Shown piece by piece: positions 28,976-40,194 of a DNA stretch of 64,000 nucleotides. Each line of letters opens with the position of its first letter. The first letter of the stretch is position 1. Position numbers and translations under genes: made by a program. The notes beneath the pieces were generated by a model. That model did not search any database. It was not told the origin of the DNA and was given only the letters and a program-made list of their open reading frames with translations. The DNA comes from Candidatus Latescibacterota bacterium (lineage in GTDB: Bacteria > Latescibacterota > UBA2968 > UBA8231), in NCBI GenBank assembly GCA_965243025.1, contig CBDETY010000003.1:4608001-4672000 (forward strand), read 5' to 3'.

Positions 28976-29201
28976 TGCCGTCCTCCCTGCGGTGCACCAT
29001 CAGGTCTTCGACCTTCTCCACGACCTGGTCCTTCGTCTCTCCGGCGGCGCGGGTGATCTTGCGGCGGGTTATGTCGCCGCGGTGGGGCGCCAGCAGCACT
29101 CCGAGGGCGCTGCCGACCACGAAGCCGGCGCAACACCCGATGACGAAGCCGGTCAGGCGGCCGCCGGAGCGGTTTCCGGGATAGTATCGACTGTAGAACA
29201 T
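28950..29201 (-). CDS. YtxH-domain protein
   Basis: GFVVGSALGVLLAPHRGDITRRKI; GAGGAG before ATG 29201. Confidence 0.8.
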   Translation of the reverse strand: MFYSRYYPGNRSGGRLTGFVIGCCAGFVVGSALGVLLAPHRGDITRRKITRAAGETKDQVVEKVEDLMVHRREDGNDEEEAIS

Positions 29202-29497
29202 TGGCTTTTCCTCCTCTTCGCAGCCCGTTGACAAAGTTGCTCCGGGGACGAGGCCGCTGCCCCCGGATCAAACTTTGTTCCGGCTGCCTGATTACGACTC
29301 GCCGGCGGCGGAAAGGATCCGCTGAAAGGCGCGGCGCCGGGAGCCGTTTCCTTTCAGAACATAACCGCCGGACTCCATTTGAACAAAGCAGTTCCCCCCT
29401 CTATTTTTGCCCTCTTACCTGTTGTCGCGGAGCAGCTTCTGCCTCCGCCTTCCCGCACCACGCACGCCCCCGCGCGTCCACCACCGAGAGGCCGCCG

Positions 29498-30979
29498 ATG
29501 GCGCAGATTCTCAACCGCCCCTCCCACAGCCTCAGAGAGTTCCGCATTCTGCCCGGGTACACCCCGCCGGACGGCAACGCCCTCAACGTCGATCTCGGGA
29601 CGCGCCTGTGCGCCTGCGGCGACGGCTTCATCGAGCTGAAGACGCCGTTCCTGAGCGCCGCAATGCAGGCGGTGACCGGAGCCGAGATGGCGATCGCGAT
29701 CTCGCAGCTCGGCGGCATCGGCATCCTGCCGGTGAGCCAGAGGACGGATGAGCAGTGCGCGAAGATCGACGTGGTCAAGCGCTTCAAGGCCGGCTTCCAG
29801 ACCAACATCATGACCCTGTCCCCGGGGCAGCTGATAGCCGACGTCATCGAGATCATCCGCGACACCGGGTACTCGACCTTTCCCGTGACCGACAGCGGCG
29901 CCTTCCACGGCCGCCTGCTCGGCATCATCACCGACAAGGACTTCGACGTGCGCCGCGACCACGCCTGCACCGTAGGGGAGCGGATGCGCCGCGACGTCCA
30001 GGCCGGGGTCGGCATCGCCGACCTCAAGGAAGCGAACGAGCTGATGATCAAGTACGGCCGCGGCTTCCTGCCGATCATCGACGGCGACGGCATCCTGCAG
30101 TCGGTGGTTTTCAAGAGGGACCTCGACAAGCATCTCGAGCATCCCAACGAGTCCGTCGACAGCAAGAAGCGCCTGCTCGTCGGGGCCGCGGTCTCCACCC
30201 ATCCCGAGGACCGCGAGCGGGTGCAGTTCCTCGTCGAGCACGAGGTCGACGTCCTCGTCATCGACGCCTCCGACGGGCACACGCACTTCCAGCGCCAGAT
30301 GATCGAGTGGATCAAGGGGAGCTACGGCGTCCCGGTGATCGCCGGCAACGTCATCACCGCCAGGGGGTTCGATTTCCTCGTCGGCGCCGGGGCCGACGCC
30401 ATCAAGGTCGGTATGGGGATCGGCTCGGGATGCACGACCATGGAGGTCAAGGCGACCGGCCGCGGGCAGGCGACGACGCTGATGGACATCGCCCCGGTGC
30501 GGGACGCCCTGTTCGAGAAGGAGGGCCGCTACATTCCGCTGATCGCCGACGGCGGCATCAGCGGCCCCGCGGAGATGTCGGTGGCCCTGGCCCTGGGAGC
30601 GGACGCGCTGATGATGGGCAACTTCTTCGCCCGCTACACCGAAAGCGCCGGAAACCTCGTCCGCAACGCCGGCGGCGAGATCGTCAAGGAGTACTGGATG
30701 GAGGGGAGCAGCAAGGCGCGCAACGCCCGGCGCTACGCGCAGCTGCAGGACCTCTTCTTCGAAGAGGGGATCACCGGGTACGTCCCCCACCTCGGCTCGA
30801 TCTACGACAAGCTCCCGGTGGTGCTGCAGATCCTGCGCTCGACGCTGGCGACCGCGGGCTGCCGCTCCATCGGCGAGCTGCACCGGTCGGCGCAGGTCGA
30901 GATGCAGTCCCCGACCGCTCTCGCCGACAGCGACATCCACGACATGGTGCCGATGAACATCGACCAGCAGATCCTGTAG
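29498..30979 (+). CDS. guaB: IMP dehydrogenase with CBS pair
   Basis: Motifs SAAMQAV, IDASDG, AGNV, catalytic loop GMGIGSGCTT, ADGG, KEYWMEGS. GMP reductase activity is not excluded. Confidence 0.88.
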   Translation: MAQILNRPSHSLREFRILPGYTPPDGNALNVDLGTRLCACGDGFIELKTPFLSAAMQAVTGAEMAIAISQLGGIGILPVSQRTDEQCAKIDVVKRFKAGFQTNIMTLSPGQLIADVIEIIRDTGYSTFPVTDSGAFHGRLLGIITDKDFDVRRDHACTVGERMRRDVQAGVGIADLKEANELMIKYGRGFLPIIDGDGILQSVVFKRDLDKHLEHPNESVDSKKRLLVGAAVSTHPEDRERVQFLVEHEVDVLVIDASDGHTHFQRQMIEWIKGSYGVPVIAGNVITARGFDFLVGAGADAIKVGMGIGSGCTTMEVKATGRGQATTLMDIAPVRDALFEKEGRYIPLIADGGISGPAEMSVALALGADALMMGNFFARYTESAGNLVRNAGGEIVKEYWMEGSSKARNARRYAQLQDLFFEEGITGYVPHLGSIYDKLPVVLQILRSTLATAGCRSIGELHRSAQVEMQSPTALADSDIHDMVPMNIDQQIL

Positions 30980-31100
30980 TGTCCCGTCCCGACGATATCC
31001 CGCAGTTCTTCAGCCGATCCATCCCGGGGGAAAAATCGCGGCTCGATCGAAATATCCCTTGGGCGATTTTTCCCTCGATCCGGGTTCACCGGCCCACACC

Positions 31101-31796
31101 GTGAAGGTCCTGGTCACCGGGGCCGGCAGCCGGCTCGGCCGCGCCCTGGCGACGGAGCTGCGGGCGTCGGGCCACGAGCTGCGGCTCAGCCACCGCTCCC
31201 GCATCCGCACCGGCTGCGAGTTCGCGCAGTCGCAGCTCGGTCACGGCAGCGCCACCGACCGCCTGGTGAGCGGCATCGAGACCATCGTGCACATTCCCGA
31301 TCCCGGGCCGCAGCCGTCCCCGGAGGACTGGATCGACGCGGGCACGCGCTGCGCCTACAACCTCTTCCGCGCCGCCGCCAGGGCAGGGGTCGGCCGCGTG
31401 ATCTACATCAGCAGCCTCGATCTCTTCCTGTCTTACGACGAGGACATGGCGGTCGGCGAGACCTGGCGGCCGCTGCCGTCGACGGACCCCGAACAGCTCG
31501 GCATCTACCTCGGGGAGTTCGTCGCCGAGGAGTTCGTCCAGGAAAGGCGCTTCGGCTACACCTGCCTGCGGCTCGGCCACCTTGTCGAGGCCGCCGAAGC
31601 CGGGGGGCAGCCGTACGACCCGATGTGGCTCGAGCTGTCGGACGCGGCGCTCGCCGTCGCCGCGGCGGTCGGGCGCTCCGCTGAGGCCCCCGCCTTCGAG
31701 ATCCTGCACGTCCAGTCCTCCTCCCCGGGCTCGCGCTTCGGCATCGACGCCGCGCGCGACGCTCTCGGTTTCGAGCCGCGGCACAACTTCGCATGA
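31101..31796 (+). CDS. NAD(P)-binding epimerase/uronate dehydrogenase-like SDR, degenerate active site
   Basis: VLVTGAGSRLG and RVIYISS; no YxxxK at the expected position. Confidence 0.75.
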   Translation: MKVLVTGAGSRLGRALATELRASGHELRLSHRSRIRTGCEFAQSQLGHGSATDRLVSGIETIVHIPDPGPQPSPEDWIDAGTRCAYNLFRAAARAGVGRVIYISSLDLFLSYDEDMAVGETWRPLPSTDPEQLGIYLGEFVAEEFVQERRFGYTCLRLGHLVEAAEAGGQPYDPMWLELSDAALAVAAAVGRSAEAPAFEILHVQSSSPGSRFGIDAARDALGFEPRHNFA

Positions 31797-32524
31797 AGGT
31801 GCTGATACTCGGCGCCCACGGGATGCTGGGCCCGTGGGTAGTGAAGGAGCTCGAAGGGAGCTGCGACCTCAGGCTCACCGACATAATCGACATCGACTCC
31901 CCCCACGAGACGATGCGGGTCGACGTCGCCGACTTCCGCCAGGTTTTGGCTGCGGCCGAGGGCACCGACGCCATCGTCAACTGCTCGGTGCTGCGCTCGC
32001 ACCGCAAGGCCGCCTTCGACGTCAGCACCCTCGGCACCTGGAACGCGGTGCGCGCCGCGGTCGAGCTCGGCATGCCGAGGTTCGTCAACACCGGTCCGCA
32101 CTTCACGGTCACCGGCAGCTTCTACCACCAGTTCGATTTCGGCATTCCCGAGGAGGTGCCGGCGCACTCAGGCTCCGGCAACGTCTACGCCCTGTCGAAA
32201 TCCGCCGGGCAGGAGATCTGCCGCCTGTTCGCCGCCAACCACCCGATCCACGTCCTCTGCATGCTGTTCCTCAACTTCCGCTCCCACGTAGCACCCGCCG
32301 ACGAGGTGGGCGGCGACCTCAACCCGTTCACGGTCAGCTGGCGCGACGCCGGAAAGGCGATCCGGCTGGCTCTCGAGGTCGACCTCGCTACCCTGCCGAG
32401 CCGCAACGAGGCCTTCTTCGTCACCGCGGACCTGCCGCACGGCAAGTACTCCAACGCCAAGGCGAAGCGGCTTCTCGGGTTCGAGCCGCAGGACCGGCTC
32501 GAGGAATACTGGCGCAGGTCCTGA
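31793..32524 (+). CDS. NAD-dependent epimerase/uronate dehydrogenase-like SDR
   Basis: GAHGMLG, LRLTDI, YALSK; ATG overlaps the upstream TGA. Confidence 0.8.
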   Translation: MKVLILGAHGMLGPWVVKELEGSCDLRLTDIIDIDSPHETMRVDVADFRQVLAAAEGTDAIVNCSVLRSHRKAAFDVSTLGTWNAVRAAVELGMPRFVNTGPHFTVTGSFYHQFDFGIPEEVPAHSGSGNVYALSKSAGQEICRLFAANHPIHVLCMLFLNFRSHVAPADEVGGDLNPFTVSWRDAGKAIRLALEVDLATLPSRNEAFFVTADLPHGKYSNAKAKRLLGFEPQDRLEEYWRRS

Positions 32525-32549
32525 CAGCCCCACGGACGAGCCGCTGACC

Positions 32550-33617
32550 GTGCCTTCGACCGAAGCTGTGCTGCAGGTGTTCCGGGGACCGGACCGCGGC
32601 TTCGAGCTGCGCAGCCTGGAGCTGCCGGAGCCGGCCGCCGGAGAGGTCCTGGCGCGGGTCGACCTGGCGACGATCTGCGGCTCCGACCTGTACACGGCGC
32701 GCGGCGCCCGTCCGCAGCCGGTCCCGGCGGTGCTCGGACACGAGGGGGTCGGGACGGTCGTTGCCACGGGGCGCGGCCGAAACCTCGAGGTCGGAAGCCG
32801 GGTAACCTGGTCCCTGGTCGACCGCTGCGGTTCCTGCGCCTTCTGCACCCGCTACGGCCTGCCCGAGAAGTGCGAGTCCCTGTTCAAGTACGGGCACGCC
32901 CCGCTCGCCGAGGGGGGCGCGAGCGGATGCTACGCCTCGCACATCCTGCTGCGCCCCGGCACCAAGGTGGCGGCGGTGCCGGAAGCCTTGAGCGACGCGG
33001 CGGCGGCACCGGCAAACTGCGTCCTGGCGACCGCGGTGAACGTCGTTTCGCAGCTTCCCGAATCCTGCGAAAGCGCCGTCGTCCAGGGCGCCGGCCTTCT
33101 CGGTCTCTACCTTTGCGCGCTGCTGCGCAGGCGCGGGGTCGGCCACCTTTTCTGCTGCGATCCCGACGGCCGGCGGCTGGCCCTTGCCCCCTCTTTCGGC
33201 GCCACCCCTCTCGGTGCGGACCCCGGGGCGAGAGAGGCCGCGGTCCGCGACCGCTGCCCGCACGGCGTCGACGCCGTGATCGAGGCCGCGGGGGATCCGG
33301 CCGTCGTGCCGGAAGGGGTGGACCTCGTGCGGACAGGGGGATGGCTTGTTCTCGCCGGCATGGTGCACCCGCGCAGCGCCCTGGAGCTGACCGGGGAGCG
33401 GATCATCCGCAAGTGCCTTACCCTGCGCGGGGTCCACAACTACAGCCCTCGCCATCTGCACGAAGCGGTGCGGTTTCTCGAGGCGACCGCGGCCGTCCAT
33501 CCGTACGAGCGGCTCGTCTCACCGTCACTCTATCCGCTGCCGCGGCTCGAGGAGGCGTTCGCCGCCGCGGAGTCCCGGGAGTGGCACCGGATCGCGGTGC
33601 GCCCAAAGGAGTGCTGA
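32550..33617 (+). CDS. Zn-dependent alcohol dehydrogenase resembling the phosphonate-catabolism-associated (HpnZ-like) clade
   Basis: Motifs ICGSD, GHEG, CGSCAFC..C, PANC, GAGLLG, GVHNY; 1 nt upstream of phnA. Confidence 0.8.
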   Translation: MPSTEAVLQVFRGPDRGFELRSLELPEPAAGEVLARVDLATICGSDLYTARGARPQPVPAVLGHEGVGTVVATGRGRNLEVGSRVTWSLVDRCGSCAFCTRYGLPEKCESLFKYGHAPLAEGGASGCYASHILLRPGTKVAAVPEALSDAAAAPANCVLATAVNVVSQLPESCESAVVQGAGLLGLYLCALLRRRGVGHLFCCDPDGRRLALAPSFGATPLGADPGAREAAVRDRCPHGVDAVIEAAGDPAVVPEGVDLVRTGGWLVLAGMVHPRSALELTGERIIRKCLTLRGVHNYSPRHLHEAVRFLEATAAVHPYERLVSPSLYPLPRLEEAFAAAESREWHRIAVRPKEC

Positions 33618-33618
33618 T

Positions 33619-34833
33619 ATGCCCGGAGTGAACGGACGCGACTACGGCCTGCCGGCCGCGCCGGTCGTCGGTATCTGCATCGACGGCTGCGACCCGGCCT
33701 ACATCGAGGCCGCCGCGGGCTCCATGCCCAACCTGCAGGAGATGATCGCCTCGGGATGCTCCGGCCTGGCGCAGGCGGTCGTTCCCTCTTACACCAACCC
33801 GAACAACGTCGCCATCCTCACCGGAACGACCCCGGACGTCAACGGCATCTGCGGCAACTACTACTACGACGAGGCCAGCGAACGCGAAGTCATGATGGAC
33901 GACCCGCGGCACCTGCGGGCGGCTACCGTTCCGGCGGCTTTCAGCGCCGCGGGCGCCAGGGTGGCGGCGGTCACCACCAAGGAGAAGCTGCGCCGCTTTC
34001 TCGGCCACGGCCTGCGCGGAATCAGCTTCTCCGTCGAGCGCGCCGAGGCGGTTACAGAGGCCGAAAACGGCATCGGCGACGTGCTCGGCATCGTGGGGCG
34101 GAAGAACCCCGGTATCTACGATCCCGAGGCGAGCGTCTTCTGCCTCGAAGCGGGAGCGCGCCTGCTGCAGCGGGAGAAAATCGACCTGATGTACCTGTCG
34201 ACGACCGACTTCGTGCAGCACAAGTTCGCCCCGGGGGCGCCGGAGGCGGCCGCCTTCTACAGCCGCCTCGACCTCTTCCTCGGCGAGCTGCACGATATCG
34301 GCGCCGTCGTCGGCATCACCGCCGACCACGGCATGAACGACAAGACGAAAGCCGACGGCACCCCGAACGTTCAGTACCTCGGGAGCATCCTCGAATCCGC
34401 CGGCATCGAGGCGCGGGTGATTCTGCCGGTCACCGACCCGTACGTCGTCCACCACGGCGCCCTGGGCTCGTACGCGACCGTTTACCTCGGGGCCGCGGAC
34501 CTCCCCCGGGCGCGCGCCCTGTTGGAACAGGTTCCTGGAGTGGAGCGGGTTCTCGCGAAGCAGGAGGCAGCCCTGGAATACGCGCTGCCACCGGATCTCA
34601 TCGGCGATCTCGTGCTGCTGGCGGACCGCGGCACCGTGCTCGGCAAGACCCCGGACTGGCACGACCTGTCCGACGTCGAGACCGGGCTCAGGTCGCACGG
34701 CGGCCTGCACGAAGCGACGGTCCCCTTCATCGTCAACCGCCCCCTGAAGAGCCGCTGGCGGGAGCGCCTGGCAGGAAACCGGATGCGGAACTTCGACCTC
34801 TTCGACGCCCTCTGTAACGGGGTGGAGGACTGA
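33619..34833 (+). CDS. phnA: Phosphonoacetate hydrolase
   Basis: Motifs ICIDGC, PSYTNPNN, HKFAP, TADHGM, TDPYVVHHGALGS, RSHGG, RNFD. Confidence 0.95.
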   Translation: MPGVNGRDYGLPAAPVVGICIDGCDPAYIEAAAGSMPNLQEMIASGCSGLAQAVVPSYTNPNNVAILTGTTPDVNGICGNYYYDEASEREVMMDDPRHLRAATVPAAFSAAGARVAAVTTKEKLRRFLGHGLRGISFSVERAEAVTEAENGIGDVLGIVGRKNPGIYDPEASVFCLEAGARLLQREKIDLMYLSTTDFVQHKFAPGAPEAAAFYSRLDLFLGELHDIGAVVGITADHGMNDKTKADGTPNVQYLGSILESAGIEARVILPVTDPYVVHHGALGSYATVYLGAADLPRARALLEQVPGVERVLAKQEAALEYALPPDLIGDLVLLADRGTVLGKTPDWHDLSDVETGLRSHGGLHEATVPFIVNRPLKSRWRERLAGNRMRNFDLFDALCNGVED

Positions 34834-35112
34834 TCCGCTGTCCTGTGGACTCTCCGAACCGGAGGACCGGGACCCGGGGATGCGGGGCCCGGGATGGAAC
34901 AAGCGGGTGGGATTTTCGGGGGAATAACGGACCGGGTGCCTCGGCTGTCCGAGGGCATTCGTGGGACTGGCAACCTCAACCCGTGGCAGCGCGGCAGTTC
35001 CCGGGCGGGACCGGGAGCCGGGCAACGAACCGGCAGCAGATCAAAAGCGGGCAGAAAAACCCGTGGCTGAGCGGAACACCCGCCCCGCCGCGGACTTTCC
35101 GAGGCAGGACCC

Positions 35113-36537
35113 ATGCGTGAGTACGGCAGCATCATCGGCGGGAAACAGCAGCCTGGCGGCGAGTGGATCGACGTGCGCAACCCGTATACGTCGGAGCCGG
35201 TGGGAAGGGTCGCCTCCCTCGATCCCGGGAGCCTCGACGCCATCGTCAGGCAGGTCCACGCCGCCGAGGTGCGCCTCAGCCGAAGGGAGCGCAGCGACGT
35301 GCTTACGCGGATGGCGGCCGCGGTCGAGGAGCGTGCCGGCGAGATCAGCCGCCTGATCACGGACGAGTCCGGGCTCTCCCTGAAGGACTCCCGCTACGAG
35401 GCGCTGCGGGTCTGCGAGGTGCTGCGCTTCTCGGGGATGGCGGCGCTGCAGGACGATTCCGAGGTGTTCCCCTGCGACGTCTCCGTCCAGGGGCGCCCGC
35501 GCCGCATCTACACCTCCCGGTTTCCCTGGCGCGCCATCGCGGCGATCACCCCCTTCAACCACCCGATGAACCAGGTCGCCCACAAGATCGCGCCGGCGAT
35601 CGCGACCAATAACACGGTGCTGCTGAAGCCATCTGAGAAAACCCCGCTCTCCGCTTACTACCTGGCGGAGCTGGCGTTCGAGTGCGGACTGCCGCCGCAG
35701 TCGCTGGCCGTATTCAACGGCACGGCCGGCGGTGTTGCCGAGCCCCTGGTCGCCCACGACCTCGTCGACATGGTGACCTTCACCGGCGGCACCGCCACCG
35801 GCCGCCGCATCGCCGAACTGGCCGGGTACAAGCGGCTGGTGCTCGAGCTGGGGGGCAGCTCGCCGCTGCTCGTGCTCACCGACGCCGACCCGGAGACCGC
35901 GGCGGGGATCGCCGCCGCCGGCATCTTCCGGAACAGCGGCCAGCGGTGTACGGCGATTCGCCGCCTACTCGTCGACGAGAGGGTCGCCGGCCGCTTTGCC
36001 GCGGCCCTGGCGGCGGAGGTCTCGCGGCTGACCTGCGGGAACCCCTACGAGGAGGAGACCGACGTCGGCACGGTGATCTCCGGGGAAGCGGCCCGCGGCA
36101 TCGAGGCCCGGGTTGAGGACTGCCTCGGCCGCGGCGCCGAGCTGCTGGCCGGCCACCGGCGCGAGGGGGCCCTCTACCACCCGACGGTCCTCGACCGGGT
36201 CGATCCCGCCTGCGAGCTGGTGAAGCGGGAGACCTTCGGACCGGTCGCACCGATCATCCGCGTCTCCTCCCTCGACGAGGCGGTCCGCCTGGCCAACGAC
36301 ACCCCCTACGGGCTGTCCGCCGGGGTGGTCAGCGATCACTGGCCCTCCATTCAGCGGGTGATCGGCGAGGTGGAGGCGGGGACGGTGAACGTCAACGAGG
36401 CGCCGAGCTACCGGCTCGAGACCACTCCCTTCGGGGGCATCAAGTCATCGGGGCTCGGGTACAAGGAAGGGGTGCTCGAGACGATGAAGGCGATGACCTG
36501 GGTCAAGACCTACTCGCTGCCCTGGGACCGGCCCTGA
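35113..36537 (+). CDS. phnY: Phosphonoacetaldehyde dehydrogenase
   Basis: Motifs TPFNHPMNQVAHK, ELGG, NSGQRCTA, SGLGYKEGV, KTYSLPW; next to phnA. Confidence 0.92.
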   Translation: MREYGSIIGGKQQPGGEWIDVRNPYTSEPVGRVASLDPGSLDAIVRQVHAAEVRLSRRERSDVLTRMAAAVEERAGEISRLITDESGLSLKDSRYEALRVCEVLRFSGMAALQDDSEVFPCDVSVQGRPRRIYTSRFPWRAIAAITPFNHPMNQVAHKIAPAIATNNTVLLKPSEKTPLSAYYLAELAFECGLPPQSLAVFNGTAGGVAEPLVAHDLVDMVTFTGGTATGRRIAELAGYKRLVLELGGSSPLLVLTDADPETAAGIAAAGIFRNSGQRCTAIRRLLVDERVAGRFAAALAAEVSRLTCGNPYEEETDVGTVISGEAARGIEARVEDCLGRGAELLAGHRREGALYHPTVLDRVDPACELVKRETFGPVAPIIRVSSLDEAVRLANDTPYGLSAGVVSDHWPSIQRVIGEVEAGTVNVNEAPSYRLETTPFGGIKSSGLGYKEGVLETMKAMTWVKTYSLPWDRP

Positions 36538-36576
36538 GTGACGCGCCGCCGCGAGCGTACCCGCCTTGCGAACCGG

Positions 36577-37602
36577 CTACAGCGGAAACTCGACGCGCCT
36601 GCCTTCGCGGAGGCTGATGTCGACCGCCTCGGTGAATTCCATGTACCTCACGCCGTCGGCGAAGTTGGTGTGCGTCACCGGGGCGCCTTCGCGAACGGCG
36701 TCGACGAACTCCCTCTCGACGCGCCACTCCCCCCGCTTTTCGGGCGGGATCTCCAGCCGCCGGAACTCGCTGTCCCCCTCTCCCGCCACCCAGGCGGCCC
36801 CGTCCTCCAGCTTGAAGGCCCCCTTTGTCCCGTGCAGCTCGAGATCGGCTCCGCTGCCACCGAGCCGCGCCACGTTGGACAGGTGGTAGACGGCGGTGGC
36901 CCCCGACTCCATTTCCGCGACGATCCCGATCGACTCGGGGACGTCGGCATCCTGCATCCGGCCGGTCTCCTCGTTCAGCCGCTCCGTCGTGAACGACGCG
37001 GCGTGCGCGACGAGGGATTTCTCGAACCCGGCGTAGCGGTGGACGTTCTCGTTGTAGATGCCCATGGCCATGATGTTGTTGCCCGACAGGTCGCGGCGCT
37101 GGCGCCAGTGCAGCGGAGCCTGCGGATCGTAGCCCCCTGCGAGCGAACTGACCCGGATCTCGAGCCAGTCGCCGAAGCAGCCGTCGGCGATCAGATCCAG
37201 GGTCGTCGCCTCCGACTCGGGGTCCATCTGCCCGGGGACGATCATGGCGACCTTGTCCGATGCCAGGGAAGCGTCGTACATCCGCCGGGCTTCCTCGAGA
37301 TTCATCGCCATGCGCGCCTCGGTGAGGATGTGCTTGCCGGCTTTCAGGGTCTCGAGGGTGACCTCGCAATGCATGTACGGCCAGGTGCCGACGCAGACGG
37401 CGTCGACGTCGTCCCGGTGCACCACTTCCCTCCAGTCCTCGACGACGTCGGGGATGCCGAAGTCGTCGGCGACCTTCTGCGCCGACTCGCGGCTGCGGTT
37501 GCAGACGGCGACCACCTCGACGCCGTCGATCTCCTGGAACCCGGGGATGTGTTTCAGCCTGGTGTTCGCCCCGGCGCCGATCAGTCCTATTGAGAGCGTC
37601 AT
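36577..37602 (-). CDS. Gfo/Idh/MocA family oxidoreductase
   Basis: IGLIGAG and TWPYMH..GKHILTEARMA. Confidence 0.88.
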   Translation of the reverse strand: MTLSIGLIGAGANTRLKHIPGFQEIDGVEVVAVCNRSRESAQKVADDFGIPDVVEDWREVVHRDDVDAVCVGTWPYMHCEVTLETLKAGKHILTEARMAMNLEEARRMYDASLASDKVAMIVPGQMDPESEATTLDLIADGCFGDWLEIRVSSLAGGYDPQAPLHWRQRRDLSGNNIMAMGIYNENVHRYAGFEKSLVAHAASFTTERLNEETGRMQDADVPESIGIVAEMESGATAVYHLSNVARLGGSGADLELHGTKGAFKLEDGAAWVAGEGDSEFRRLEIPPEKRGEWRVEREFVDAVREGAPVTHTNFADGVRYMEFTEAVDISLREGRRVEFPL

Positions 37603-37801
37603 GCTGACTCCTGCGAGGTATGCATTCTGTACGTGATTGGTGATTGAGTGGAAACCGTGCCGACGAGCTGACAGCCAGCGGAAATTCAGCTTTTGCAGGG
37701 TTGGAATCCCCGCATCGTATTCGCGCCGAATCCGGCCGCAAGGGCCGCCCGCAGGGCCAGTGCGTCAAGAGGCTGCTAAGGTAGGGCGGCCCGGGGGGCG
37801 G

Positions 37802-38218
37802 TCAATCGGCTTTGCCGCCGGCGAACTGCCGCAGCCGCGCCGCGATTTCGTCGCGCACCCGGCGAAACACCGCCATGCGTTCGTCGCGCGAGCCGGTCGC
37901 TGCGGCCGGGTCGTCGAAGCTCCAGTGGTGCTGCCGGCCTCCCGGCAGAAGCGGACAGGTCTCGCGGGCGTGGTCGCACACGGTGATGACGTGATCGAAG
38001 GTCTGGCCGCGGTATATCTCGACCGACTCGGACCGCTGGCCGCTGATGTCGATGCCGATCTCCCGCATCGCCTCGACCGCCATCGGGTTGAGTCCGTGGG
38101 GCTCGGTGCCGGCGCTGAACGCCTCGCAGGCGCCGCCGCCCAGCGAGCGCAGCAGGCCCTCGGCCATCTGGCTGCGGCAGGAGTTGCCCGTGCACAGGAA
38201 GAGGACTCTTTCAGGCAT
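37802..38218 (-). CDS. arsC: Thioredoxin-coupled arsenate reductase (LMW-PTP fold)
   Basis: CTGNSCRS, TVCDHARETCP, HWSFDDP; three redox Cys. Confidence 0.9.
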   Translation of the reverse strand: MPERVLFLCTGNSCRSQMAEGLLRSLGGGACEAFSAGTEPHGLNPMAVEAMREIGIDISGQRSESVEIYRGQTFDHVITVCDHARETCPLLPGGRQHHWSFDDPAAATGSRDERMAVFRRVRDEIAARLRQFAGGKAD

Positions 38219-38885
38219 CTTCGTCTTTCGCCGACCCGGGCCCGGCAGGGCTGCGGCTTCGCCAGACCCGGTGAATCAACCCCGCGGCCGCGGCCCCGGC
38301 GAAGGTGCCGGTGAAGTAGATCCAGAAAAGGTTCAGGGTGTCGGTGAACAGGGCCGGCCCCAGGGTGCGCGCCGGGTTCAGGGAGGCGCCGGTCAGCGGC
38401 CCCCCCATCAGGATGCAGAAGATGAGGGTGAAGCCGACGATGATCGGCGCGAGGTTCCCCGCCCGGCCGCTGGCGGGAACGGCGAGAACGGCGTTGACGA
38501 GAATGAAGGTGAGGACCGCCTCGAGGAGCAGTCCCTTTCCCGGCGAGATCCCCTCGGCCAGGACGGTGGCGCCCAGCGAAGACTCGGCGCCGAGAAGAAA
38601 GAAGAGCAGTGCCCCCCCGGCGATGCCGCCGGTCAACTGCGCTGCCCAGTACGCCGCCATCTTCCCCGGCTTCATCTCGCCGGCGACGAACAGCCCGAAG
38701 CTGACCGCGGGGTTGAGGTAGCTGCCGCTGAGGGAGCCGTACCCGTACGGGTAGGCGATCACGACGAAACCGTGGGCAAAAGCGGCCCCGATCAGTCCGC
38801 CGACGCCCACGGCGACCGCTCCGGCGCCGATGAAGATGAGTAGGAAGGTGCCGAAGACCTCGGCTGCGAACGCCTTGAAATCCAT
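38211..38885 (-). CDS. MIP family aquaporin/aquaglyceroporin
   Basis: AEVFGTF and two NPA motifs (YLNPAVS, SLNPART); ATG 38885. Confidence 0.92.
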   Translation of the reverse strand: MDFKAFAAEVFGTFLLIFIGAGAVAVGVGGLIGAAFAHGFVVIAYPYGYGSLSGSYLNPAVSFGLFVAGEMKPGKMAAYWAAQLTGGIAGGALLFFLLGAESSLGATVLAEGISPGKGLLLEAVLTFILVNAVLAVPASGRAGNLAPIIVGFTLIFCILMGGPLTGASLNPARTLGPALFTDTLNLFWIYFTGTFAGAAAAGLIHRVWRSRSPAGPGSAKDEDA

Positions 38886-39111
38886 GAACCCGTGCTGCTG
38901 TTGCTGGTGAGGCGGTACCGGCAGGGATTCTGGCGGGGCCGGAACCGGAGTTGAAACTCGACCTGACCGCGAAGCCGGGTCAAGCTCCCCGTTCCGGCGC
39001 TTACCCCGGTTTTTCCGGAAACTTATATTTCGCCGTTCTTCACCTCGACCCTCTTCCGATTCCAACTCCTGACGCTCATCGATGCCGGCCGCGGACGCCC
39101 CTGAGAACCGC

Positions 39112-40194
39112 ATGCGCCTGCTGTTCCTGGCGCGGCGCTACCCCCCTTCGGTCGGCGGCATTCAGACCCACTGCCACAAGCTCTACAGCCGCCTCAGCCG
39201 GCAGTACCCCGTCACCCTCGTAGCCCTCGGCAGAGACTCGCTGCTGCACCTCGCCTGGTTCCTCCCCTGGGTTGCGGTGCGGACCCTTGCCGCCCTGGTC
39301 TTTCGCCGCGTCGATGCCGTGTACTTCGCCGACGGCGTGGTCTGCGCCCTGGCCCCGGTTTTACGCCCATTCAAGGGCAGAGCCCGCTTCGTCGTAACCA
39401 TCTACGGCCTCGAAATGACCTACCGGAGCGCTCTTGCCCGGGGGCTGATGAAGAGCGGATGCCGCTGTTGCGAGCGCATCGTCCTCATCAGCGAGCACAC
39501 GCGGAACCTCGCCCTGGCCTGGGGGCTGCCGCCGGAGCGGCTGCGGGTCGTCTACGTCGGGGTCGAACCGGCCGAACCGGCCGCGCAGCGCTGCGCGGAG
39601 CTGCGGGCCGAATTCGAGGAGCGCACCGGCGTGGCGTTCGCGTCGGAGAAGGTGCTGCTCAACATCGGCAGGCAGGTGCGCCGCAAGGGAATGGTCCCCT
39701 TCGTCGAGCAGGGGCTGCCCCTCCTGGAGTCCGACATCCGCCTGATCATCGCCGGCGGCGGCCCCGACATGCCGCGGCTGCGCGAGCTGGCGTCGCGCCC
39801 CGAGACCGCTTCCCGCATCCTGATCGTCGACGCCCCGGACGACGATGCCGCCGCCATGCTGCGGCGCAGCGCCGGCCTCTTCGTGATGCCGAACGTGCCG
39901 ATGGCAGACGACGTCGAGGGGTACGGGATCACCCCCCTGGAGAGCATGCATTCCGAAACCCCCGTGGTCGCCTTCGCGGTCGACGCCCTGGTCGAGAGCA
40001 TCCGCGAGGGAGGCTGGCTCGTCCCCGCCGGCGACTATTCCGCCTTCGCCGGCCGCATCCACGAGTTCTTCTCGCTCGGAGAACCCCGGCGCGCCGAGCT
40101 GGGCCGCGAGGCGCGGCAGTACGTGCTGCGCGAGTACGGCTGGGACAAGAGCGCCCGCGAGTACGCCGCGATCTTCGCCGGCGATTCCCCCTGA
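39112..40194 (+). CDS. Glycosyltransferase family 4 (PimB-like)
   Basis: YPPSVGGIQ, GRQVRRKG, EGYGITPLES. Alternative ATG at 39082. Confidence 0.88.
   Translation: MRLLFLARRYPPSVGGIQTHCHKLYSRLSRQYPVTLVALGRDSLLHLAWFLPWVAVRTLAALVFRRVDAVYFADGVVCALAPVLRPFKGRARFVVTIYGLEMTYRSALARGLMKSGCRCCERIVLISEHTRNLALAWGLPPERLRVVYVGVEPAEPAAQRCAELRAEFEERTGVAFASEKVLLNIGRQVRRKGMVPFVEQGLPLLESDIRLIIAGGGPDMPRLRELASRPETASRILIVDAPDDDAAAMLRRSAGLFVMPNVPMADDVEGYGITPLESMHSETPVVAFAVDALVESIREGGWLVPAGDYSAFAGRIHEFFSLGEPRRAELGREARQYVLREYGWDKSAREYAAIFAGDSP

Follow-up and report, generated by a model that had tools for sequence, protein, structure and literature searches.

The window, the whole stretch of 64,000 nucleotides analysed here, originates from a Candidatus Latescibacterota bacterium and carries three genes on its plus strand that could be assigned to phosphonate metabolism. 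The first (32550..33617) starts with GTG and encodes a pbfG-type Zn-dependent alcohol dehydrogenase (ADH) of 355 aa, in which the PF08240 (67.8 bits) and PF00107 (55.6 bits) domains were recognized. It is followed by phnA (33619..34833), assigned to phosphonoacetate hydrolase, the enzyme that breaks the C–P bond to give acetate and phosphate, and by phnY (35113..36537), assigned to the NAD-dependent phosphonoacetaldehyde dehydrogenase that produces phosphonoacetate. The TGA stop of the ADH gene occupies positions 33615–33617 and the ATG of phnA begins at 33619, thus only a single base separates the two genes, which suggests that their translation is coupled. The preliminary description had placed the end of the ADH gene 1 nt before phnA with phnY next to it, and this arrangement was confirmed, with the refinement that phnY does not abut phnA: a non-coding spacer of 279 nt (34834..35112) lies between them. 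All three ORFs are intact and their third-position GC content (0.87 to 0.92) is gene-like for the host genome. Two small SDR genes are located only 25 nt upstream of the pbfG–phnA pair.

No recognized element was found in the spacer: the 34834–35112 segment gave no Rfam match at E ≤ 1, no promoter-like site was detected in it, and the one hairpin resembling a terminator is confined to the minus strand. The sequence occurs only once in the genome. In two genomes of the same genus, the corresponding spacers measure 280 and 148 nt and show little conservation except for approximately 40 nt ahead of the phnY start, and in other genera the phnA–phnY gap is roughly 0–20 nt.

PhnA reached 486.1 bits on TIGR02335, above the cut-off of 407.55, and its gene is present in a single copy in the genome. 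The best solved structures were the phosphonoacetate hydrolases 1ei6 (402.9 bits, residues 3–400) and 3szy (397.4 bits), which align from end to end, and the S-x-T-N-P-N-N motif, whose Thr we take to be the nucleophile (Thr64), is kept in the alignment to 1ei6. PhnY contains PF00171 (431 bits) and its best family is TIGR03250 (592.6 bits, next family 398.3 bits). This score stays under the cut-off of 635.65, a shortfall that counts against the route proposed below. The best solved structure for PhnY is the Sinorhizobium meliloti enzyme 4i3t (421.4 bits, next entry 274.1 bits), and the Arg of E-x-x-R is retained in their alignment together with F-N-H-P, E-L-G-G, Q-R-C-T (GQRCTA), and Y-R. The catalytic and phosphonate-binding residues of S. 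meliloti PhnY are presumably Arg108, Asn158, His159, Glu254, Arg290, Cys291, and Arg447.

For the ADH, TIGR03366 (HpnZ_proposed) was the top family by about 200 bits (next family 98 bits). Scoring against this model had been proposed in the preliminary description, and the result, 300.7 bits, falls just below the curated cut-off of 328.1, which counts against a role in the oxidation of 2-hydroxyethylphosphonate (HEP). The homologues of V. spinosum (313.5 bits) and of a Gemmatimonadota member (307.7 bits) are also just under this limit, and the actinobacterial enzymes score 412–416 bits, including P0143 of C. protaetiae (415.6 bits). P0143 is listed as 'zinc-binding dehydrogenase [Cellulosimicrobium protaetiae]' and has all seven residues named by Piazza and co-workers (Protein Sci, 15 Sep 2026; PMC13576164) at the exact numbers of that paper, and on the grounds of its name and these residues it was taken as the assayed reference enzyme. 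The window ADH shares only 40% identity with it (E 2e-52), while both have the same Pfam families and all seven residues are kept: C43, S45, R54, H64, H116, C157, and N297 correspond to C45, S47, R56, H66, H124, C166, and N298 of C. protaetiae. Among these, C43, H64, and C157 (Cys45, His66, and Cys166) are the ligands of the catalytic zinc, and S45, R54, H116, and N297 (Ser47, Arg56, His124, and Asn298) are the predicted HEP-binding residues. The structural-zinc cysteines C93, C96, C99, and C108 are likewise kept at the aligned columns (4/4). The AF2 model (pLDDT 86) shows a medium-chain Zn-ADH fold with 1vj0 as the top PDB match (TM-score 0.86). Fold and zinc sites are common with L-threonine 3-dehydrogenases and other Zn MDRs (2dfv, 2dq4, and TM0436 1vj0), for which the Foldseek TM-scores are 0.79–0.86 and the sequence matches 75–126 bits, but on the Tdh family models the ADH reached only 93–98 bits vs cut-offs of 380–458. 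To our knowledge, these enzymes have no phosphonate link.

The distribution of the residues and the gene neighborhoods were compared between 53 loci of the ADH clade and 34 loci of other MDR ADHs. S45, R54, H116, and N297 are present in all 53 clade loci, covering both subclades, whereas outside the clade the Arg54 position is never Arg (0/34), and His116 and Asn297 occur in 4/34 and 3/34 cases, respectively. Phosphonate-type genes were found within 7 kb in 41 of the 53 clade loci and in none of the 34 others, and 11/53 contain PhnA and PhnY without PbfD or a class-V aminotransferase. A quick IQ-TREE analysis of 89 rows placed the window ADH and P0143 in one clade of 55 rows with an SH-aLRT of 99, separate from the threonine dehydrogenase-like ADHs. 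The same clade was monophyletic in FastTree with weak support (0.589), and this weakness counts against the HEP route, as does the fact that the window ADH belongs to a different subclade from that of the assayed C. protaetiae enzyme. The window's subclade also holds members of Verrucomicrobiota, Planctomycetota, and Chloroflexota.

Together with the score below the TIGR03366 cut-off, the separate subclade and the 40% identity leave some room for the idea that these enzymes prefer another alcohol, such as a different hydroxyalkylphosphonate or isethionate, and that HEP is not the true substrate of the pathway. We consider this unlikely, given that the four predicted HEP-binding residues are invariant across both subclades and that the downstream PhnY and PhnA act on C2 phosphonates. 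In addition, PMC13576164 describes the assayed PbfG as highly specific, with an activity on isethionate four orders of magnitude lower. By analogy, the window's subclade would use the same substrate as its 40%-identical homologue, and the ADH is most likely a HEP dehydrogenase forming phosphonoacetaldehyde, as predicted from its sequence.

According to PMC13576164, the pf00107 family named PbfG there includes the C. protaetiae enzyme that oxidizes HEP to phosphonoacetaldehyde with a kcat/KM of 88,500 M−1 s−1. In that work, PbfG was coupled to PhnX, not to PhnY–PhnA, and phosphate was released; the part of the paper at hand reports no growth experiment. It also describes pbfG clusters with phnX or phnY–phnA and without phnW and pbfD, with Gemmatimonadota among the phyla, and the window cluster follows the same logic of pbfG plus phnY–phnA lacking phnW or pbfD. 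Accordingly, the locus is a new example of an already published pathway, not a new pathway, and the central idea of a Zn-ADH as the entry to hydrolytic HEP catabolism is no longer new. The statement of the preliminary description that this combination was not a characterized pathway has thus been overtaken by the publication of September 2026 (PMC13576164). Actinobacterial relatives of the assayed enzyme in the loci compared here are mostly accompanied by a PhnX-like hydrolase, phnCDE, and a PbfD-type oxidase, not by PhnY–PhnA. The PhpC-type (pf00465) HEP dehydrogenases/phosphonoacetaldehyde reductases have the reaction and the cluster partners in common with the window ADH, but their fold is unrelated to this pf00107/pf08240 medium-chain dehydrogenase, and the two types are treated as convergent in PMC13576164.

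Considering these data, the locus very probably represents a three-enzyme, C–P-lyase-independent HEP route yielding phosphate and acetate. In the first step, the PbfG-type Zn-ADH would oxidize HEP to phosphonoacetaldehyde with NAD+; PhnY would then convert the aldehyde irreversibly to phosphonoacetate, and PhnA would hydrolyze the C–P bond of the latter to acetate and phosphate, so that the breakdown of each HEP would generate two NADH and release one molecule each of acetate and phosphate. This scheme presumes that HEP enters the cell and that the trio acts together in vivo, as its arrangement suggests. That the ADH takes the place of PhnW as the entry enzyme, as initially put forward, is supported by the 40% identity, the 7/7 conserved residues, the clade, the synteny, the genome-wide lack of other entry enzymes and of C–P lyase above the cut-offs, and the published PbfG data (PMC13576164). 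The equilibrium of the published enzyme favors HEP and the reductive direction is faster (PMC13576164), consequently the first step would have to be pulled forward. The same kinetics, along with two pbfG homologues reported within Actinoplanes biosynthetic clusters in that paper, could also mean that the ADH runs in the opposite direction in vivo, reducing phosphonoacetaldehyde to HEP in biosynthesis or detoxification. This appears extremely unlikely here, as the neighbors are two catabolic enzymes and no PEP mutase was found above the cut-off in the genome (best match 109.1 bits vs 319.55), which leaves it without a source of phosphonoacetaldehyde.

Other entry enzymes were sought in the entire genome assembly (6,801,905 bases, 96.17% complete). 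For PhnW (TIGR02326, cut-off 400.8), the best match reached 154 bits and is encoded 2.9 Mb from the cluster, and the best match to PhnX (TIGR01422) reached 38.3 bits vs 220; none of the PhnW and PhnX matches listed fell inside the window. The absence of phnW and phnX noted earlier for the cluster therefore extends to the genome at these cut-offs. Likewise, the best genome-wide match to the TIGR03364/PbfD oxidase was 77.4 bits vs 285.1, and nothing exceeded the family cut-off for PhnJ of the C–P lyase. As its ADH orthologs are linked to phosphonate genes and no PhnW scores above the cut-off, the pattern named in the preliminary description as contradicting its reading, unlinked orthologs combined with a phnW elsewhere, is not seen. 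The downstream steps are homologous to those of the S. meliloti-type PhnW–PhnY–PhnA pathway for 2-aminoethylphosphonate (AEP; 421 bits to 4i3t for PhnY and 397 bits to 3szy for PhnA), but the entry enzyme differs: an NAD-dependent alcohol dehydrogenase stands where that pathway has PhnW, a PLP transaminase.

PhnY and PhnA could nevertheless be fed mainly by AEP through an unlinked and unrecognized transaminase or oxidase, with the ADH as an ancillary or side enzyme. The candidate is the class-V aminotransferase behind the 154-bit PhnW match (G000:C3:1.69 Mb), which also reached 205.9 bits on TIGR03301 (PhnW-AepZ); this makes some AEP transaminase activity possible and counts against the HEP route. 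In addition, 5/10 of the examined clusters at the guaB locus described below encode a true TIGR03364 (PbfD-type) amine oxidase, with 404 and 402 bits for the two proteins compared with the model, thus the ancestral cluster probably handled AEP too. However, the aminotransferase falls well short of both cut-offs (400.8 and 360.8), its best family is pyridoxamine–pyruvate transaminase, it is encoded 2.9 Mb away, the best TIGR03364 match of the genome stays at 77.4 bits, and the 1-nt gap suggests that the ADH gene is translationally coupled to phnA, therefore we regard the feeding by AEP as improbable. Since the TIGR03364 oxidase is absent from the guaB site in the window's genus, HEP is the only recognizable entry substrate.

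The cluster occupies a conserved chromosomal position between guaB and a Gfo/Idh/MocA gene, and the nearest named locus of its family is in a Gemmatimonadaceae MAG. Relatives have lost different parts of it at this site: phnY is missing in G019, both phnA and phnY in G017 and G015, and G012 has phnA alone. Such piecemeal loss makes it conceivable that the cluster is on the way to decay. Furthermore, no phosphonate transporter or regulator was found in or near the cluster, which counts against the HEP route and sets it apart from the actinobacterial pbfG loci, mostly equipped with phnCDE; the only PhnD-like binding protein of the genome is of the selenate type (TIGR04553, 368 bits) and adjoins selD. 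The cluster might accordingly be an evolutionary remnant with intact sequence, whose use ceased since the transporter and the regulator have gone. This seems very unlikely, because the three ORFs are intact with their high third-position GC, and both same-genus genomes keep the trio with 85–91% amino-acid identity. Contigs of a sponge metatranscriptome library also map onto all three genes of a relative (approximately 91–94% DNA identity), an argument weakened by possible DNA carry-over.

A more specialized form of the HEP route can also be envisaged, although with a low probability: a marine or sponge-associated genus of HEP specialists that has lost the PbfD oxidase retained by its relatives, takes up HEP by a transporter type not yet linked to phosphonates, and co-transcribes pbfG–phnA with the two upstream SDR genes, whose products may add an unrecognized step, for example, the conversion of a phosphonate-bearing precursor to HEP.

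HEP contributes notably to the dissolved organic phosphorus of the sea, and we know of no documented fate for it before 2026 other than C–P lyase. The locus adds an example of the HEP route from a poorly sampled lineage. With HEP as the only recognizable entry to the hydrolytic pathway, the genome fits the HEP specialization that is suggested for some organisms in PMC13576164. As the cut-offs of TIGR03366 and TIGR03250 miss the window's subclade, surveys relying on them would undercount such clusters. DNA related to the cluster is present in runs labeled as sponge and marine metagenome.

The three genes of the cluster lie on the + strand and share a high GC content at the third codon position (GC3 of 0.87–0.92) in a window that is itself GC-rich (0.58–0.73 in 2-kb windows). 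The first gene (32550–33617) encodes a 355-aa pbfG-type alcohol dehydrogenase (ADH) with ADH_N and ADH_zinc_N domains. The arrangement given in the preliminary description, with the ADH gene ending 1 nt before phnA and followed by phnY, was confirmed: the TGA codon of the ADH ends at 33617, the ATG of phnA (33619–34833) starts at 33619, and phnY (35113–36537) is not contiguous with phnA, being separated from it by a 279-nt spacer. PhnA was assigned by TIGR02335 (486.1 bits vs. the cut-off of 407.55), and two solved phosphonoacetate hydrolases could be aligned with it from end to end (402.9 and 397.4 bits). The best family of PhnY was TIGR03250, with a score under the cut-off (592.6 vs. 635.65 bits; next family, 398.3 bits), and its closest solved relative was the S. 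meliloti PhnY (4i3t, 421.4 bits; next entry, 274.1 bits). Alignment to 4i3t revealed that the motifs surrounding the catalytic Cys and Glu are kept, the roles of these residues being those established in the literature. No sign of a structured RNA or a repeat was seen in the 279-nt spacer: Rfam gave no match, and the spacer occurs in one copy in the genome and is poorly conserved within the genus.

The ADH had been proposed to replace PhnW, the transaminase of 2-aminoethylphosphonate (AEP), as the entry step by oxidizing 2-hydroxyethylphosphonate (HEP) to phosphonoacetaldehyde. An enzyme with this activity, named PbfG, is described in a recent paper (Piazza et al., Protein Sci 2026 Sep 15; PMC13576164) as a pf00107 dehydrogenase recurring in degradative clusters with phnX or phnY–phnA, often without phnW and pbfD, in phyla that include Gemmatimonadota. 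According to the same paper, the Cellulosimicrobium protaetiae PbfG oxidizes HEP with NAD+ (kcat 9.9 s−1, KM 0.10 mM) and releases phosphate from HEP when coupled with PhnX, while the AlphaFold3 model presented there assigns Cys45, His66, and Cys166 as catalytic zinc ligands and Arg56, His124, Asn298, and Ser47 as HEP-binding residues (PMC13576164). The reference sequence P0143 (351 aa, named for C. protaetiae) was retrieved by a search with an Isoptericola homologue taken from the genome collection. Because it contains the seven PbfG residues at numbers identical to those in PMC13576164, P0143 was taken to be the assayed enzyme or a near-identical one. The window ADH shows 40% identity to P0143 over 344 residues (E 2e-52), has C43, S45, R54, H64, H116, C157, and N297 in the seven PbfG columns, and also keeps the four structural-zinc cysteines. 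Its AF2 model (pLDDT 86, pTM 0.88) adopts an ordinary medium-chain Zn-ADH fold, for which TM0436 (1vj0) was the best match among the solved structures and threonine dehydrogenases were a close second.

For phylogenetic analysis, 89 sequences were aligned (the window ADH, P0143, 74 loci from the genome collection, and 13 loci from the genomes of relatives), each with a tblastn match that spanned >70% of its query and no fewer than 250 residues. A quick IQ-TREE run placed the window ADH and P0143 in one 55-row clade (SH-aLRT 99), which consisted of a 26-row subclade (SH-aLRT 100) comprising the window, Gemmatimonadaceae, Verrucomicrobiota, Planctomycetota, and Chloroflexota and a 29-row group (SH-aLRT 87) comprising P0143, actinobacteria, and others. 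FastTree also recovered the 55-row clade, with weak support (0.589), and did not recover the 29-row group. Arg54, His116, and Asn297 were present in all 53 clade loci vs. 0, 4, and 3 of the 34 loci outside the clade, respectively. Similarly, at least one phosphonate-type gene (PhnA, PhnY, PhnX-like hydrolase, TIGR03364 oxidase, class-V aminotransferase, PgtP-like MFS, or PhnD/PhnE) was found within 7 kb in 41/53 clade loci vs. 0/34 outside; several of the 12 clade loci lacking such a neighbour were short contigs. The survey of ADH–phnA–phnY synteny that had been suggested earlier yielded 11 of the 53 clade loci with PhnA and PhnY and neither the oxidase nor the aminotransferase, and a class-V aminotransferase occurred in just two of the 53.

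When the ADH was scored, as proposed, against TIGR03366 ([quoted passage not shown]), this was the top NCBIfam family by about 200 bits (300.7 bits; runner-up, 98 bits), with a score under the curated cut-off (328.1 bits). Since the homologues from V. spinosum (313.5 bits) and Gemmatimonadota (307.7 bits) scored in a like manner and the actinobacterial enzymes reached 412–416 bits, the below-cut-off score is a trait of the window's subclade. In the full-text literature search the name “HpnZ” was met just as an incidental mention in the methods of one 2020 preprint.

Alternative entry enzymes were sought with family profiles in the whole genome (three contigs totalling 6,801,905 bases; completeness 96.17%), and the absence of phnW and phnX, previously stated for the cluster, proved to be genome-wide. 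No PhnW scored above the cut-off (best 154 vs. 400.8 bits); the best PhnW-like gene encodes a class-V aminotransferase 2.9 Mb away, the top family of which was pyridoxamine–pyruvate transaminase and which reached 205.9 bits with TIGR03301 (cut-off 360.8). Likewise, no PhnX (best 38.3 vs. 220 bits), no TIGR03364/PbfD-type amine oxidase (77.4 vs. 285.1), and no PEP mutase (109.1 vs. 319.55) were detected in the genome, and the whole-genome profile search gave zero matches to PhnJ. Queries for PhnX-like and PbfD proteins taken from other loci had no tblastn match in the genome at E ≤ 1e-6, nor did PhnD and PgtP-like MFS queries of the same origin, so that no phosphonate transporter was found. The genome's one strong PF12974 (PhnD-like) protein is a binding protein of the selenate type (TIGR04553, 368 bits vs. 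250) and adjoins selD. No phosphonate transporter or regulator adjoins the trio.

The genome carries a second, oxidative-type phosphonate locus outside the window (contig C3, 2490913–2492336; 6913–8336 of locus L130, − strand), which consists of a PhnZ-like HD-domain oxygenase gene and an adjoining PhnY*-like hydroxylase gene. The former scored 249.5 bits with NF052439 (hydroxymethylphosphonate dioxygenase; cut-off 300) and 202.6 bits with TIGR03276 (cut-off 214.6), the latter 352 bits with NF052437 (methylphosphonate hydroxylase; cut-off 500). As all these scores are under the equivalog cut-offs, the candidate substrates are methylphosphonate, AEP, or another compound. The pair is flanked by a Gfo/Idh/MocA oxidoreductase gene and by a divergent ABC importer with an SBP_bac_1 protein and two permeases. 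This locus would not supply phosphonoacetaldehyde.

In the route proposed for the trio, the PbfG-type ADH would convert HEP to phosphonoacetaldehyde, an activity in print for the 40%-identical homologue, PhnY would oxidize this to phosphonoacetate, pulling the unfavourable ADH step forward, and PhnA would then cleave the C–P bond to give acetate and phosphate. Behind this HEP route stand the gene identities, the residues, and the synteny; we infer that the three enzymes work jointly in this organism, and the same applies to uptake and regulation. Entry through the ADH, as originally suggested, is supported by PMC13576164, the shared clade, the 7/7 residues, and the synteny. The accompanying remark that this combination was not known as a characterized pathway has been overtaken: because the type was already published in September 2026 (PMC13576164), the window locus is a further example of it and not a new pathway.

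The locus was then compared in 41 genomes (the window's own and 40 relatives). An ADH match (E ≤ 1e-40) was found in 20 of them, including 17 of the 24 other same-family genomes and both other genomes of the genus. The family-wide backbone consists of two ABC genes, guaB, a Gfo gene on the opposite strand, and then a glycosyltransferase, an alanine-racemase-like, and a thioredoxin gene, and the segment between guaB and Gfo is variable. In the window, two ABC exporter-type genes and the IMP dehydrogenase gene (guaB) lie upstream of the trio on the + strand, and the Gfo/Idh/MocA oxidoreductase gene is convergent downstream. The IMP dehydrogenase gene was ruled out as pathway-specific because the genome has no second guaB. 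The order SDR1–SDR2–ADH–PhnA–PhnY is shared by the window, the relatives G001 and G009, and L023, the locus of a Gemmatimonadaceae MAG. A TIGR03364 oxidase gene is present at the guaB locus in G009, G021, L023, G017, and G015 (the two that were scored reached 404 and 402 bits), the G019 cluster has no phnY, and phnA is the sole remaining gene of the trio in G012. In G017 and G015 (loci L115 and L117), the ADH is accompanied by the TIGR03364-type oxidase, a K-channel-like gene replaces phnA and phnY, and no PhnX-like gene occurs at the site; either the phosphonoacetaldehyde-consuming enzyme is located elsewhere in these genomes or the cluster is decaying. Given this variable content of the guaB–Gfo segment, the window's genus looks like a lineage that retains the HEP branch without the AEP oxidase. 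Separately, four relatives (G010, G016, G005, and G003; loci L121–L124) carry a distinct PbfG-like ADH, 37–38% identical to that of the window. An aldehyde dehydrogenase with just 31–32% identity to PhnY flanks it in each of these relatives, and three of them also have a flanking PhnA homologue (40–42%). Each of these ADHs has His, Ser, Arg, and Ser in place of the structural-zinc cysteines and retains the residues for catalysis and HEP binding.

Directly upstream of the ADH, two genes of the NAD-dependent epimerase/SDR family, SDR1 (31059–31796, 245 aa) and SDR2 (31793–32524, 243 aa), overlap by 4 nt on the + strand, and SDR2 ends 25 nt before the ADH. Their best family match was weak (archaeal NAD-dependent glucose-6-phosphate dehydrogenase Azf, ~44 bits), and PbfF, which belongs to pfam02826, was ruled out as their identity. 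The pair (31059–32524) was discarded as a member of the pathway, being conserved across the family also where phosphonate genes are missing. It precedes the ADH in seven of the ten guaB-locus clusters and is absent from the cluster-bearing G002, G007, and G021, and it is kept at the guaB site without the ADH in G003, where it is the sole content of the guaB–Gfo segment, in G005, where no phn gene separates SDR2 from the backbone gene that follows, and, with phnA only, in G012. Among the 80 genome-collection loci, L023 alone has the pair. The SDR pair is part of the chromosomal backbone, not of the phosphonate pathway. Two more adjacent SDR pairs of similar type are located on contig C3 of the same genome (6562473–6563926 and 1181017–1182512), and this recurrent pairing suggests a hetero-oligomeric enzyme. 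On the other side of the trio, a low-molecular-weight phosphatase gene (ArsC-like, PF01451) overlaps the 5′ end of a gene for a MIP-family channel (PF00230) at 37802–39113 on the − strand; this pair is conserved beside Gfo in the other genomes of the genus, and such a pairing is typical of arsenic handling.

The public runs containing most of the stretch bear coded organism labels. Runs labelled sponge metagenome (from several studies) and marine metagenome contained some 20–25% of the sampled words. One sponge DNA run, one marine DNA run, one coded run, and one sponge metatranscriptome run were aligned to 29000–38500 of the window; all four consist of contigs, from which neither expression levels nor transcript ends nor operon structure can be read. 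Sponge and marine metagenome contigs were ~93–98% identical across the locus, and the pieces listed for the coded run were identical to the window. These data, along with further sponge-labelled runs from several studies at about a fifth of the sampled words, suggest that the lineage is marine and possibly sponge-associated; the small-share runs X14–X19 enter this habitat evidence through their labels alone. Contigs of the RNA library, ~91–94% identical, lay on the ADH, across the ADH–phnA junction (33333–33752), on phnA, and on phnY, no more than a weak hint, from contigs open to DNA carry-over, of transcription of the trio in a related strain. The low cover at 34706–35022, shared by the RNA run and one of the DNA runs, reflects divergence of the spacer in related strains and is uninformative on transcription.
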